IMG/VR virus record: IMGVR_UViG_3300024270_000002
Strand: one strand, 5' to 3'
Source of the DNA: a virus
Lineage: Duplodnaviria > Caudoviricetes
DNA length: 64,000 bases
Part shown: in pieces, positions 9,027 through 58,217 of the stretch
Numbering within the stretch: the stretch's first letter is position 1
Layout: each line of letters begins with the position of its first letter
Notes under the pieces: generated by a model
Database searches by the model: none
What the model was told of the DNA's origin: nothing
The model's input: only the letters and a program-made list of their open reading frames with translations
Program-made: the position numbers and the translations under genes

Positions 9027-10979
9027 ATGGAATTAAAAAATAAAAAGATTCTTGAAGCGTTACAGATGCAGCCACTATCACAGGAGGAAATGACCTCTAG
9101 ACATATTTTAGGCAGAATGTACGGTCCTATTGCTACTTGTGTTGATAGCACACGTAATGGCAGACTTTACAACAAGCCTCTTTGGGAGAAAGCTCTACAA
9201 GATGATATTTTTCTAGAGAAGGTTGCTACTAAAGCACTTTTCTTAGAACTTGGGCATCCTGCCGACCGTGAAGAAACGGACATGAAACAGACTTGTGCTT
9301 GTATTCCTGAAGTTCCTAAAATTGTCGGTGATGACCTATGTGCCTATGTTGATATATTAGACACGCCTAACGGCAGACTGCTAAAAACGCTTGTAGACTA
9401 TGGATTTGTTCCTGGAATCAGCTCGCGCGGTTCCGGTGACGTTATGGACAATAATCAAGTAGATCCTGAGACGTTCTTCTTAGAGACTTGGGACATTGTT
9501 CAATTACCTGCAGTTAAAAAAGCAAGATTGAATGTTTGTGAATCTTTAGACTCTGAAGGCCTCAAGCTTAAAAAAGCTTTGGCTGAGTCTTATAAGGCTG
9601 CAAAAGAAGAGGATAAAGATACTATGAAAAAAGCATTAGAAAATTTAAATATCGATATCGAAGAAGAAATTTCTAACGAAGAAGCTACTGAGGAAACTCC
9701 TAAAAAGGTTCTTACTGCTGATGATATTCCTTGGTCTGAGGACGAGAACGAAGTTCTTGTAGAAGAAATGCCCGCAGATGATGAGGATGAACCAGAAGAG
9801 AGTGAAGAGACTTCAGAGGAGCAAGTTGAGGTAGAAAGTTCTGAGGAGCCAACAGAAACAGATATAGCTGTAACTGATGAAGAGTCTGCAGAGGAAGCTG
9901 AAGAAGCTTCTGAGAAAGAAGTTATTGACGTAGACTCTACCGAAGAGGTTGAGCTTAATACTGTCGGTGATGCTATTGAAATGCTTCAGGAATATGACGA
10001 TGATGTTAGAATTGAACTCGAGCCTATTGAAATTGATGGCCAAGAGTATGCTTTAAATGGCATTACTTCCTTTGTCGACGATGAGGGCGAAAAAGATATC
10101 TTAGTTTTAGGTGTTACCTGTGAAGACTCTGAAGAAGCTTCAGATGACACAGATTCAAATATAGAGATTGAAACCGAAGAAACTCCTGTTGAAACCATTG
10201 AACAAGTAGACGATGGCGAAGACTCAGCCGACGATGACGGAGATGAAGAAGTAATCGAAAGCTTGAAAGAGATGATCAGACAGAAGGAAGCTTTGGAAAC
10301 CGAAGTTAGTGATTTGCGTAAAGCTAAGTCAGTTGGCGATGCCAAGGAGCAGGAGTTACAAGAAAAGCTAGACCGGTACAGAACTGCATTTAGAACCACT
10401 AGTGCAGAAGCAGCAAAAGTTCCAGAGCTGCAAAAACAGGTTAAAGAGCTCACTGAAAAATTAACACAATCAAGCAACCAAATTAAAACATTAACTGAAA
10501 AGGTTAATAACGCACGACAGCTAAAAGAGAGCATTGAAGGTAGCAAAGCTACTGAAAGACGCTTAACAGAAGAAGTGTCTATACTTACTAAAAAGTCTGA
10601 AACTCTTGAAGCTAAATTAGAAGGTCAAACTAAGGTTTATACTGAAAAACTTCAGGAACGAACTGACCTTGCAAAAGCTTATAAAACACGCTATATTGAA
10701 ACCCTCAATAGGTATGTAAAGTCTAAAGCAGATATGCTAGGTGTTGCGCCTTCTGAAATTACAAGCCGCCTCAATGAAAGTTACACTCTTAAAGATGTTG
10801 ATGCTGTTTGTGACCAAATTCTTGAATCTACTGTAAACTTCAGTAGACTTCCTTTCGGCGGAAGGGCAAAGGCTTCTGCACGTATTGCTGAGTCTATCTC
10901 TAAACCTACTGTAAAAGACACTGAATACGGCTATGAAATCGATGACGATCTTCTCGAGCTCGCTGGATTGAAGAAATAA
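9027..10979 (+). CDS. Prohead core protease (T4 gp21-like) fused to acidic and coiled-coil scaffold region
   Basis: RNGRLY, ELGHP, ILDTPNG, GISSRGSG, WDIVQLPA motifs; long acidic stretch then heptad region; directly before MCP. Confidence 0.88.
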   Translation: MELKNKKILEALQMQPLSQEEMTSRHILGRMYGPIATCVDSTRNGRLYNKPLWEKALQDDIFLEKVATKALFLELGHPADREETDMKQTCACIPEVPKIVGDDLCAYVDILDTPNGRLLKTLVDYGFVPGISSRGSGDVMDNNQVDPETFFLETWDIVQLPAVKKARLNVCESLDSEGLKLKKALAESYKAAKEEDKDTMKKALENLNIDIEEEISNEEATEETPKKVLTADDIPWSEDENEVLVEEMPADDEDEPEESEETSEEQVEVESSEEPTETDIAVTDEESAEEAEEASEKEVIDVDSTEEVELNTVGDAIEMLQEYDDDVRIELEPIEIDGQEYALNGITSFVDDEGEKDILVLGVTCEDSEEASDDTDSNIEIETEETPVETIEQVDDGEDSADDDGDEEVIESLKEMIRQKEALETEVSDLRKAKSVGDAKEQELQEKLDRYRTAFRTTSAEAAKVPELQKQVKELTEKLTQSSNQIKTLTEKVNNARQLKESIEGSKATERRLTEEVSILTKKSETLEAKLEGQTKVYTEKLQERTDLAKAYKTRYIETLNRYVKSKADMLGVAPSEITSRLNESYTLKDVDAVCDQILESTVNFSRLPFGGRAKASARIAESISKPTVKDTEYGYEIDDDLLELAGLKK

Positions 10980-12473: not shown

Positions 12474-13907
12474 ATGGCGAGGCTTTTATTTGAAGATTAC
12501 TTACAACAAATAGATAAAAATGAACTTATAAATAACTATATTACAGAAAATAAATCTGTTAAAGAGTGTTGCTTAATATTCAATATAGGGCAATCTATGC
12601 TTATGCGAATATTAAAGCATTATAAGATAAGAAAACCTAAAGACGCGCATGTACAAAACATTAAAAAGAGTAAGCTTGAGCACTTTGGAAATCCTAATTA
12701 TAATAATCATGCAAAAAGAACACAAACCAATTTAGAAAAATATGGAGTAGAAAACCAATTTCAAAGACCTGAGCTATTTCCACAGATACAACAACTAAAA
12801 AGAGACCGATATGGTTCTTACAATAATATAAAAAAGAATTTAGAAACGCGAGCTCAAAATAGCGGCTCTTTGGAAGCTTCTTATGCAGCTCAGCAAGAAA
12901 CCTATAAACAAACCTGCTTAAAAAAATATGGTGTACCAAATACAGCAAAAGTCGAAGGCATAAGACGACAGATCGCAAGTACACTAAAAGATACTTTTAT
13001 TGAACGCTATGGTGCAGAGAATTACTGGGCAATGCCAGATGCTAAGCGATCAAATGGTAGTAAAAATTCTAGAGCAAATCTGTACTTTAAAGATTTGTTA
13101 GAAACTGGCCAAATATCTTTCACAGTAGAATTTCCACTTGATGGTAAATGGTTTGACTTCAAGGTTGATAATTATCTAATTGAAATAAACCCAACAGCGA
13201 CACATAATAGTACTTGGGGTATATATTCATCTGAAGGATTAGCTAAAGATTACCACAAACAAAAAGCAGCTATTGCCGCTGCTAATGGTTATATGTGCAT
13301 TCATGTATTTGATTGGGATGACCAAAACAAAATTATACAAATGCTAGAAAACAAAGAGCGTATCTATGCGAGAGATTGCACTATAAAAGAACTTTCCGCG
13401 GCTGAAGCGGCTGAGTTCCTAAATAAAAATCATTTGCAGGGGTACGCCAAAGATAAAATAAGATTAGGTTTATTTTATCAAGACTGTCTAGTATCGCTAA
13501 TGACATTTGATGCTCCGAGATATAACAGAAAGTATGAATATGAGTTAATTAGGTACTGCACTGCAGCCTATAATGTTATAGGCGGTGCTGAAAAGCTTTT
13601 TAAACATTTCATTGATCAGTATTTACCGGCATCAGTCATAAGCTACTGTGATCTTAGCAAATTTACTGGTAAAGTATATGAAAAACTCGGCTTTAAGTTA
13701 GTAAGAAAAGCTGGGCCAAGCAAGCACTGGTACAATATGAAAACAAAGCAGCATATTACGGATAACTTACTTAGACAGCGAGGCTTTGATCAGCTCTTTA
13801 AAACCGACTTTGGCAAAAACAGCGATAATGAAGAACTGATGCTTAATCACAATTTTGTAGAAGTCTATGATTGTGGACAAGCAACTTATGTATGGCATAA
13901 CAATTAA
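12474..13907 (+). mobile_element. Free-standing homing endonuclease-like gene (KYGxxN repeats, PD-(D/E)xK/Vsr-like nuclease, C-terminal GNAT-like domain; Hef-like)
   Basis: TNLEKYGVEN/TCLKKYGVPN repeats; FDFKVDNYLIEIN...YHKQK...CIHVFDWD; IYARDC...NHLQG...ELIRYC...GGAEKL; own promoter at 12395; inserted between MCP and neck genes. Confidence 0.75.
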
Positions 13908-52550: not shown

Positions 52551-53057
52551 ATGACTAAGAATACTGAAAAGAATAATAACATTGGATACTCTTTTTATTC
52601 GAGAGTACTCGAGAAACCTTTTGATTCCTTGAGTGAGCTCACTGCTGCTGAAGCAAAGCATGCTGCAGAGCTTAAGGCTAAGGAAGATGCCGCTGCTAAA
52701 AAGAGAGCAGATGCTAAGGCAGTTGAGGATGCTTTTAAGGCACTCAATGCCGCACGTAAGACTTATAAGGAAGAGCTTACTCAGCTTACAAAAGAGTACG
52801 CTGAATCTCTTGAGAATCTTAAGAAAGCTTTTGAGCTTGGTAAGAAGGACATATCTAATAAGCTTGCTGCTGCGGAGACTACCTTTGATGAAGCTCTTAA
52901 GGCTTTTCAGACAAAGTACCCAGAGGGCTATCACCTTACTCTCAAAGATGGTGATTTCGAGACCACTATCAGTGGCAGCTCTAAAACTGGTTCCAACGTA
53001 CAGGTACCGAAGACCAGTAATATTTTTGACATCTTTGATTGGATGTTTAGTTTCTAA
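52551..53057 (+). CDS. Ala/Lys-rich coiled-coil protein
   Basis: 168 aa with high-expression codon bias. Confidence 0.75.
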   Translation: MTKNTEKNNNIGYSFYSRVLEKPFDSLSELTAAEAKHAAELKAKEDAAAKKRADAKAVEDAFKALNAARKTYKEELTQLTKEYAESLENLKKAFELGKKDISNKLAAAETTFDEALKAFQTKYPEGYHLTLKDGDFETTISGSSKTGSNVQVPKTSNIFDIFDWMFSF

Positions 53058-53120
53058 TAAATACATAAAAAATTACTGAGACAATTTCAAAAATTTCAAT
53101 TTTTTATTGTATAATATAAC

Positions 53121-53192
53121 ATAAGATGAAAATCTTGTAAACAAGTTTCCTCCTTTGTTTCGTGCGCCGGATGTTTCCTCCCGTCCGGCGCT
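53121..53192 (+). ncRNA. Putative sRNA or leader: GAAA-tetraloop hairpin plus two hairpins with identical UUUCCUCC (anti-SD) loops
   Basis: aagat-gaaa-atctt; aaacaag-tttcctcc-tttgttt; gcgccggatg-tttcctcc-cgtccggcgc; TATTGTATAAT at 53105-53115. Confidence 0.6.
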
Positions 53193-53219
53193 ATTATTAT
53201 AATTTAAGGATTTTACAAA

Positions 53220-53588
53220 ATGCAAAATGTAGAAGCACAAGAACTTTTATTACAAATATTAGAACAAGCTCAAGAAGGTAAGGTTACTGAATTTCACCTT
53301 ATCATGACTATGAGTGAATGTAAATTTTACTACCGTCGGTACAGAGCTGATAAGCTGATTATTAGGACACTAAAGTCTGCTGCAAAAAGACTCTATAAGA
53401 CTTACTGTAAAGAGGTAAGAATAGGAACGGCAGATGCTGGTAAGCTATTTGCTTACGTACAGCTACAGGAAGTTATTAATTTCTACACGCGAGATCTTAC
53501 AACAATAAAACAGATGTTATCAGAATATGATGAATATCTAGGTCAGGGAAATTTTTGGTATTCTTTTTTGGGTGGCGAGAGACGATAA
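53220..53588 (+). CDS. Hypothetical protein
   Basis: 122 aa ORF. Confidence 0.65.
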   Translation: MQNVEAQELLLQILEQAQEGKVTEFHLIMTMSECKFYYRRYRADKLIIRTLKSAAKRLYKTYCKEVRIGTADAGKLFAYVQLQEVINFYTRDLTTIKQMLSEYDEYLGQGNFWYSFLGGERR

Positions 53589-53601: not shown

Positions 53602-53826
53602 ATGGAACATTCATTAACAACTTTATTTCATGCTTATGCAGATCAGGAAAAGCCGCCGGTAATAGAACTTCTTAGTATAGATAAAAAGCCGGTGGGGGCA
53701 ATTTATTTTGATAAGTTAAGATATAAAAACTTTATAGTATCCGAAACAAACAACTCTGAAAAATATTATTTATATGTTGATGGTTTAGGAATTTATTTCT
53801 CATTTTATCAAAAAATAACACCTTAA
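53602..53826 (+). CDS. Hypothetical protein
   Basis: ATG 53602 after aggag. Confidence 0.55.
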   Translation: MEHSLTTLFHAYADQEKPPVIELLSIDKKPVGAIYFDKLRYKNFIVSETNNSEKYYLYVDGLGIYFSFYQKITP

Positions 53827-53841
53827 TTATCGTATAATACT

Positions 53842-53931
53842 ATAGGTGAGTGCGAGTATGTGGTGTCATTGGCATCTGGGGCGATGAGGTAAAACTCGTC
53901 GTCCCACCTCCTTTTTAGGGCCTTAACCTAT
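53842..53931 (+). ncRNA. Putative structured sRNA containing CACCUCCUUU
   Basis: TATCGTATAAT at 53828; GC-rich hairpin 53877-53906; ends ataggt/acctat complementary. Confidence 0.45.
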
Positions 53932-54005
53932 TATCGTAATTGGCTAAATTAAGTACAAGAGTTTCTACTCTTTAGACATAATATTTTAAAAGAAAGGTTT
54001 AATTT

Positions 54006-56749: not shown

Positions 56750-56857
56750 CTGAAAATGCTAGGATTTTTTATTAAACTCTGTTAGTTTTGTCGGTTTACA
56801 AATTCATTAAAATATGTTATAATATAAATGTAAGAAAAACAATGGAGGAAACTAAAT

Positions 56858-57097
56858 ATGGAAATTAAGAATGTTACGGAAGATATGGACTGGAGCGGCT
56901 GGCTGGTAAGACCTAAGTCTGAATGGCTTAATCCCGGAGAGGAAGCTCACCCTTATGTAGTTCTTGAAGACAGAGGTCCGAGAGTACTGATTCAGCTTCT
57001 TCCTCAGTATCAGCCTAAGAATCTTACCTTCCCTTGTGTAGAGTCCGGGCTTAAAGACTGGTATGAAGTAATTGATAAGGAGATTCAAACGAGATGA
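56858..57097 (+). CDS. Hypothetical early protein
   Basis: RBS ggagg, early promoter at 56795. Confidence 0.7.
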   Translation: MEIKNVTEDMDWSGWLVRPKSEWLNPGEEAHPYVVLEDRGPRVLIQLLPQYQPKNLTFPCVESGLKDWYEVIDKEIQTR

Positions 57098-58029: not shown

Positions 58030-58160
58030 AGTGTTCCAAACACAACCTATTATATTCAAACGTTATTCAGTAGGCTCATAAGGAAGAGCAGTGGCAGCAT
58101 CCTCATACTAATTACCTTAACTCCTTCAATCCCCCGAGTTAGCTCTTCCTTATGCTGTCT
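58030..58160 (+). ncRNA. Putative early sRNA with 13-bp closing stem and C-rich loops
   Basis: TTTACA-N17-TATAAT at 57996-58024 with no ORF before the next promoter; cataaggaagagc/gctcttccttatg; inner taactc-cttcaatccccc-gagtta. Confidence 0.45.
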
Positions 58161-58217
58161 TCTACATATTGCATAAAAACAAATAAAATAATTTTGAAAC
58201 TTCGGTTGTTTTGTCAG

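Follow-up and report, generated by a model that had tools for sequence, protein, structure and literature searches.

The window, by which the whole 64,000-nucleotide stretch of DNA analysed here is meant, is part of a 127.8-kb IMG/VR virus contig that is ~55% complete. Its genes encode the portal, protease, major head and sheath proteins, followed by a helicase and NrdD; immediately behind the major head protein gene is a homing or HNH endonuclease gene (12474-13907). Among cultured phages, the closest major capsid proteins are those of Bacillus, Listeria and Streptococcus myoviruses, with identities of 24-29%. GGAGG is present before the start codon in 60 of the 175 called genes, and GGAGGA in 43. 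As GGAGG is this frequent and the nearest cultured relatives infect Bacillota, the host is likely to be of the Bacillota type and dependent on Shine-Dalgarno (SD) sequences. The carriers of the element described below are a group of large (~220-kb), myovirus-like gut phages, which probably infect gut Bacillota.

The element lies between an upstream gene of 168 aa (52551-53057) and a downstream, + strand gene of 122 aa (53220-53588, here gene 53220), the ATG of which is preceded by AAGGA. It is a + strand unit comprising positions 53108-53205 and is divided into five parts: a copy of the phage consensus promoter, a 7-bp 5′ hairpin, an A/U-rich linker, a GC-rich 10-bp hairpin and a U-rich tail. 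The promoter motif TATTGTATAAT spans 53105-53115; the promoter sequence TTATTGTATAAT has its -10 at 53110-53115 and a TG. The extended -10 element TGTATAAT (53108-53115, + strand) conforms to the phage consensus T[CT]GTAT[AT]AT, and the site is also called by a promoter scan. In the 127.8-kb record, 25 copies of this consensus are on the + strand and four are on the - strand. Nearly all of the copies are intergenic, their usual distance to the start codon is 26-50 nt, and a terminator is often found directly before them. For the promoter at 53108, the next ATG is 113 nt away, with a terminator in between. Upstream of the -10 is an A/T-rich box, ACTGAGACAATTTCAAAAATTTCAATTTT (53076-53104, + strand), which is nearly invariant in 13 of 15 relatives and possibly represents an UP element or a regulator site; other copies of the consensus promoter have a terminator in its place. 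Within the box is a direct repeat, AATTTCAA-AAATTTCAA, which is replaced by GAAATTTGAGAAATTTCA in two of the relatives (L161 and L162).

Transcription is predicted to start at ~53121-53123, that is, at the 5′ hairpin (HP1, 53121-53138, + strand). This 7-bp hairpin has a GAAA loop (core aagat-GAAA-atctt) and a folding energy of -4.3 kcal/mol (z = -6.1). It is immediately followed by the linker (53139-53163, + strand), which carries the first of two anti-SD motifs, GUUUCCUCCUUUG (53145-53157). The linker leads into the GC-rich hairpin (HP3, 53164-53191, + strand; -18.9 kcal/mol), which is called as a terminator and has 10 bp and an 8-nt loop, UUUCCUCC (53174-53181), the second anti-SD motif. The U-rich tail UAUUAUUAUAAUUU (53192-53205, + strand) is broken up by A's in the present phage and reads UUUUAUUUUAAUU in most relatives. 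The predicted RNA is ~80 nt long, and the fold of an 85-nt RNA has an energy of -27.5 kcal/mol (z = -6.6).

An initial annotation of this DNA had described a structured, + strand RNA of three hairpins behind a promoter, with identical 8-nt loops in the second and third. All of the sequence features that it listed were found at its coordinates: the promoter looks genuine, being a consensus copy, and both loops read TTTCCTCC. The three hairpins are likewise all present, but the second (53139-53160) is marginal at -1.9 kcal/mol and has no comparative support. Absent from that reading was the nature of the third hairpin, which by its sequence is an intrinsic terminator. With this terminator, the unit would have the anatomy of a complete small RNA (sRNA) gene or that of a terminator-containing leader. 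The stretch from the upstream stop codon at 53057 to the promoter has no terminator, so HP3 would end the upstream transcripts as well.

The two copies of TTTCCTCC, at 53146-53153 and 53174-53181, are the only ones on the + strand of the 64-kb window. The - strand has eight more, which read GGAGGAAA in the + strand messages. Chance expectation is 1.9 copies for both strands together, and the 10 copies observed were reached by none of 100 shuffles.

Twelve viral loci were reached by way of the upstream protein, all of which have the element, and further loci came from scanning viral and metagenome contigs for the pattern. The outcome is 15 distinct versions in related phage contigs with a constant gene neighbourhood. 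A covariance model built from their alignment scores every version at 82-114 bits. There is one copy per genome, as the remainder of the 127.8-kb record has no other, and five relatives, among them a 220-kb genome rated 96% complete, also have just one each. Prokaryotic genomes gave 12 pattern matches, none of which fits the covariance model, and wider pattern scans of viral contigs returned the same clade only, plus unrelated coding or low-complexity matches. Separately, an unrelated, GC-rich viral contig (L049, 800-860) carries TTCCTCCTTTT followed by a hairpin, ggcgggtgggg/ccccacccgcc, with the loop TTTCCTCCTTT; here, an anti-SD tract and an anti-SD loop are laid out as in the element, in another lineage.

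The RNA is on average 84% identical to its relatives, versus 73% and 66% for the flanking coding DNA. The gene order in all relatives is a 165-190-aa gene, the element, a 122-133-aa gene, a 75-84-aa gene, the nrdD leader and nrdD. In all 14 loci that reach past the element, it adjoins gene 53220, and it never occurs away from this gene. The Rfam search that had been proposed at the outset found no family covering the element: the whole window is without a match at gathering score, and at E values up to 10 there are only chance-level matches, with no Bacillota sRNA model among them. Judged by these comparisons, the element can be taken as a real, new and comparatively supported RNA family, although of an already known kind.

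Structure prediction and covariation centre on HP3. In a model-guided alignment of the 15 sequences, seven of its 11 pairs show changes in both bases, with 98.7% of cells paired. None of 500 shuffles reaches this level of covariation and no slid control comes near it. The alignment was fitted to the structure, and RNAalifold, given this fitted alignment, arrives at the HP1 and HP3 helices on its own; the stem changes are visible already in a plain MAFFT alignment. Across the 15 versions, stem energies range from -16 to -21 kcal/mol. In contrast to the stem, the loop is constant, reading nUUCCUCC in 15 of 15, with UUCCUCC invariant. Thus, the covariation test suggested by the initial annotation came out in favour of HP3, with a covarying stem and an invariant anti-SD loop. 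In HP1, 97% of cells are paired in the 15 sequences and one pair is changed on both sides, with the loop sequence being variable.

The same test went against hairpin 2. None of its pairs has changes in both bases, shuffles score at least as well, it is broken in three relatives (L002, L009 and L010), and RNAalifold leaves the region open. Since it lacks covariation and is broken in these relatives, motif 1 is better read as lying within a weakly structured linker, in which a marginal 7-bp hairpin may form in the present phage. The sequence of the linker motif, GUUUCCUCCUUUG, is invariant in 14 of the 15 versions, the remaining one (L010) having GUUUUAUUCCUUUG. In the predicted ensembles of all 15 versions, the CCUCC of the HP3 loop is unpaired with a probability of at least 0.91; for the linker CCUCC, the value is at least 0.87 in 11 versions.

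The + strand is the structured one. The original argument for this, made from G-U pairs, is borne out by the relatives, where wobble pairs recur that fit the + strand only; pair 59-70, for example, is U-G in 11 of 15. The minus-strand, promoter-like TTTACA-N17-TATATT sequence, which had been raised as a caveat, is called by the scan, but its TGTAAA is replaced by TATAGA or TATAAA in most relatives, so this promoter-like site is not conserved. A minus-strand reading was rejected, as the site is not conserved, the ORF that follows GGAGGAAAC has 23 codons here and stops after eight in L009, and the wobbles favour the + strand.

What the analysis shows is the anatomy, conservation and covariation of the element, together with its strand and the exposure of its motifs in predicted folds; that it is transcribed and terminated and acts in trans, and on which targets, is inferred. 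The favoured reading, to which we give about an even chance, is that the element is a phage sRNA of ~80 nt with its own consensus promoter and its own terminator, the two anti-SD motifs of which occlude selected ribosome binding sites (RBSs) in trans. It would be made from its own copy of the promoter and ended at its own intrinsic terminator, and perhaps it also serves as the 3′ end of upstream-gene transcripts. The anti-SD sequence would be displayed twice, with copy one in the flexible linker (GUUUCCUCCUUUG) and copy two in the terminator loop (UUUCCUCC). These exposed, CU-rich motifs may base pair with GGAGG-type RBSs of selected phage or host mRNAs and such pairing would block 30S binding, as it does for LhrC, the csRNAs, RsaE/RoxS and SprX in Bacillota. 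Specificity could come from the conserved flanks of motif 1. Read-through past the terminator would produce transcripts carrying gene 53220, so the unit may serve as both sRNA and leader.

Two of the features that define the CU-rich anti-SD sRNAs as a class are seen in silico: a short unit with a promoter and an intrinsic terminator, and a C/U motif complementary to the SD, here in two copies. Homology to a described Rfam family of this class was not found. The scarcity of the motif also speaks for this reading: CCTCC occurs only 23 times on the + strand of the 127.8-kb record, and seven of these fall within three promoter-led non-coding units, one of them being the four-motif RNA of ~230 nt that is described below and is conserved in the 220-kb relative. 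It is the anatomy of a Bacillota-type regulatory RNA, together with the likeness to known anti-SD sRNAs, which makes SD occlusion in trans, possibly with a leader role in addition, the favoured reading. By analogy with the known Gram-positive small RNAs, the element probably blocks the translation of chosen messages.

Which messages might these be? Six genes with GGAGGAAA had been pointed out as having the exact complement of the loop. Each of these sites is indeed 5-7 nt before a start codon, but the genes do not form a distinct regulon: GGAGG is found in 60 of 175 genes, so those with GGAGGAAA are not a special class, and after GGAGG, AAA (seven genes) is no commoner than ATT (10). As the flanks of motif 1 are conserved, extended pairing to this motif was looked for instead. 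The candidate that emerged is the RBS region AAACAAuGGAGGAAACU (56837-56860, + strand) of a 79-aa gene at 56858-57097, which is complementary to the linker at 16 of 17 positions, with one mismatch. This RBS is the best in the record and, with the flanks of the linker shuffled, its score is equalled for any gene in only one of 300 cases. In the 220-kb relative (G001), a weak homolog of gene 56858 ranks second among 269 genes with 13 matches, and in the L001 phage the match of the 56858-type gene is 11. The top predicted target in G001 has 17 matches, which none of 200 shuffles equals, and is without a counterpart in the present, incomplete record. The best predicted targets of the two phages are not clearly orthologous, and the RBS of gene 56858 is considered a lead only, suggested by complementarity. 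Whole-genome duplex energies with long seeds were too noisy for the ranking of targets.

Gene 56858 is also located behind a promoter of a second class. These TTTACA-N17-TATAAT promoters consist of the box AAACTnTGT..TTTGTC(A/G)GTTTACAAA, then N17, TATAAT and ATGTAAG. There are four + strand copies, at 56790, 58213 and 63797 and, outside the window, at window-type position 73751. Each drives a small gene with a GGAGG(A) SD, and the class possibly represents early promoters.

The unit can also be viewed from the gene that follows it. Here, it would be a cis leader or attenuator of the operon starting at 53220, in which the promoter-proximal terminator limits or times transcription, the CU motifs are sites for a phage or host protein or RNA controlling read-through, and the short RNA is a by-product. 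No consensus promoter lies between the terminator and gene 53220, even though the promoters of this phage are typically 26-50 nt before the start codon, so this gene must be expressed by read-through, as would suit a leader and an sRNA alike. A promoter-proximal terminator directly upstream of a gene, with no promoter intervening, is what would be expected of an attenuator, and synteny with gene 53220 is strict. In addition, the next intergenic unit, the structured nrdD leader (53826-54005), has the same promoter (at 53830), a structured RNA and a covarying terminator, and it is plainly a leader. It includes a conserved CATTGGCATC box, the covarying terminator hairpin at 53877-53906, GCTAAATTAA and a further hairpin before the nrdD SD; conservation in relatives does not extend to the CCUCC behind the hairpin, Rfam gives no match, and this leader may be a new attenuator or riboswitch. 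The read-through needed by gene 53220, together with this similarly built unit, makes a cis leader a serious alternative, which we regard as possible while doubting it.

The doubt comes from the missing parts of an attenuator. Alternative, antiterminator pairing can be dismissed: the linker is invariant while the terminator stem changes sequence, so no conserved competing helix is possible. No Rfam aptamer was found and no leader peptide is conserved: a MKIL mini-ORF is missing in L009, L063, L142 and L154. This candidate peptide (ATG AAA ATC TTG TAA, within HP1) was rejected, being without an SD and missing from several relatives. All of the downstream SDs contain AGGA and could pair with motif 1, but the predicted probability of such pairing is at least 0.4 in only three of 15 read-through transcripts. 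The protein of gene 53220 offers no RNA-binding or antiterminator fold. It has no Pfam or PHROG match, and a search with it found no relative; the alignment of gene 53220 proteins is highly variable. Its model is a helical bundle of three helices (pLDDT 91), against which nothing significant was found in the PDB, the best matches being coiled coils and T4 UvsY (E 0.15-0.5). Finally, a plain terminator has no need of an invariant loop. If the element does act in cis, it would be an unusual attenuator without an alternative structure, which implies a factor that reads CCUCC.

Two further explanations were considered. According to one of them, which we think distinctly unlikely, the element is a mimic of the 16S rRNA 3′ tail or a general decoy, where CCUCCUUU tracts, along with a second RNA bearing four motifs, titrate SDs globally or bait a protein or nuclease acting on the rRNA 3′ end. 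CCUCCUUU, found within motif 1, forms the core of the 3′ tail of bacterial 16S rRNA. Furthermore, the complement of the motif is the consensus SD itself and not a gene-specific sequence, and the second conserved RNA has four such motifs, one of which is CACCUCC. This RNA is a stand-alone, non-coding unit of ~230 nt, located outside the window in the 127.8-kb record (G000; window-type ~75230-75480); it has a promoter and terminator of its own, and the next gene is served by a different promoter. Its four CCUCC motifs include CACCUCCCUCCUUUUU, CCUCCUU and CCUCCUUU, and it is conserved in the 220-kb relative (G001, 9597-9711, reverse strand), which supports the idea that CU-rich RNAs are used by this clade. 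Against the decoy explanation, the phage would itself suffer from global occlusion, as its own genes depend on the same SDs (GGAGG in 60 of 175). Conservation of the motif 1 flanks extends past the SD complement and suggests specific pairing; titration of all cellular SDs looks stoichiometrically implausible; and no candidate protein partner was found. The other explanation, a highly improbable one, places the function in the DNA: two direct TTTCCTCC repeats, 28 bp apart and just 3′ of the promoter, would bind a regulator, and it would be a coincidence that they fall in RNA loops. In support of this, the repeats are exact and close to a promoter, with a conserved A/T-rich box upstream of it. 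Yet the second repeat is exactly in the loop of the covarying hairpin in 15 of 15 versions, the spacing of the repeats varies from 24-29 nt, and the wobble pairs point to selection on the RNA.

A bolder form of the tail-mimic idea would take the two RNAs together. Here, the clade of ~220-kb phages, probably of gut Bacillota, would carry a set of RNAs, namely the twin-motif element and the four-motif RNA of ~230 nt, which imitate the 16S anti-SD tail to reprogramme translation initiation. This would be achieved either by occluding the strongest host or early phage SDs or by baiting a factor at the 3′ end of the ribosome. We regard this as a speculative and rather unlikely proposal. If true, the RNA set would be a viral, RNA-based counterpart to the phage-encoded ribosomal protein S21. 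As a separate observation, positions 58030-58165 contain a promoter-like ATTATATAAT and, after it, a long hairpin (cataaggaagagc...gctcttccttatg); the apical region of the hairpin is CU-rich, and no ORF is obvious.

To our knowledge, very few regulatory RNAs have come from large, apparently virulent phages and almost none from gut Bacillota phages. The element is a clean, new RNA family with an obvious, testable mechanism, SD occlusion by the linker and terminator-loop motifs; a candidate target is at hand, and the same genomes have a sister RNA. Should it act in trans as favoured, these phages would tune translation initiation with RNA. Whether the outcome is cis or trans, it would add to the knowledge of gene control in jumbo phages.

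The layout had at first been thought not to correspond to any described phage system. This is not the case for the kind of RNA, as CU-rich anti-SD sRNAs that use the terminator loop are known (LhrC; PMC4132741) and one anti-SD sRNA, SprX, resides on converting phages (PMC4005690). One of these is LhrC of Listeria monocytogenes, a ~100-nt RNA with its own promoter and a Rho-independent terminator. Its CU-rich motifs pair with the SD of targets such as lapB and block translation (PMC4132741). The likeness lies in redundant CU-rich motifs, followed by U's, which are placed in a single-stranded stretch and in the terminator loop. The motif differs, being CUCCC/UCCC at three sites in LhrC, including the loop of the 5′ hairpin, and UUCCUCC at two sites in the element, neither in the loop of the 5′ hairpin. 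In addition, LhrC is chromosomal, multicopy and stress-induced, whereas the element is single-copy in a large phage and its function is predicted; there is no sequence homology between the two.

The cia-dependent csRNAs of streptococci have stem-loops with a conserved CCUCCU anti-SD motif (PMC4438229). They are encoded by the host, controlled by CiaR and have their motifs placed otherwise than in the element, with no homology detected. SprX (RsaOR) is found on converting phages of Staphylococcus aureus, and its exposed, C-rich loop pairs with the spoVG RBS, thereby blocking ribosome loading (PMC4005690). As proposed for the element, it is a phage-carried sRNA with a Bacillota host. The SprX phages are temperate and converting, host genes are regulated and the UCCC is in an internal loop; in contrast, the element has two motifs and belongs to a ~220-kb, myovirus-like phage.

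Variable stems combined with constant, anti-SD-like loops in adjacent hairpins are also characteristic of the cuckoo RNAs (ar14, RF02344) of Alphaproteobacteria (PMC4615179). Their loop motif CCUCCUCCC is present in each of two to four hairpins, whereas the element has the loop UUUCCUCC and one hairpin with the motif in a supported loop. RF02344 is the only Rfam model with even a weak match to the element, and its 19.8 bits (E = 0.15), compared with a gathering threshold of 58.8, place the element outside the cuckoo family. Type I 3′UTR-derived sRNAs with an internal promoter, such as DapZ and MicL, are Hfq-dependent and enterobacterial. The element resembles them in that its promoter comes right after the upstream gene and its terminator is common with the upstream transcript.
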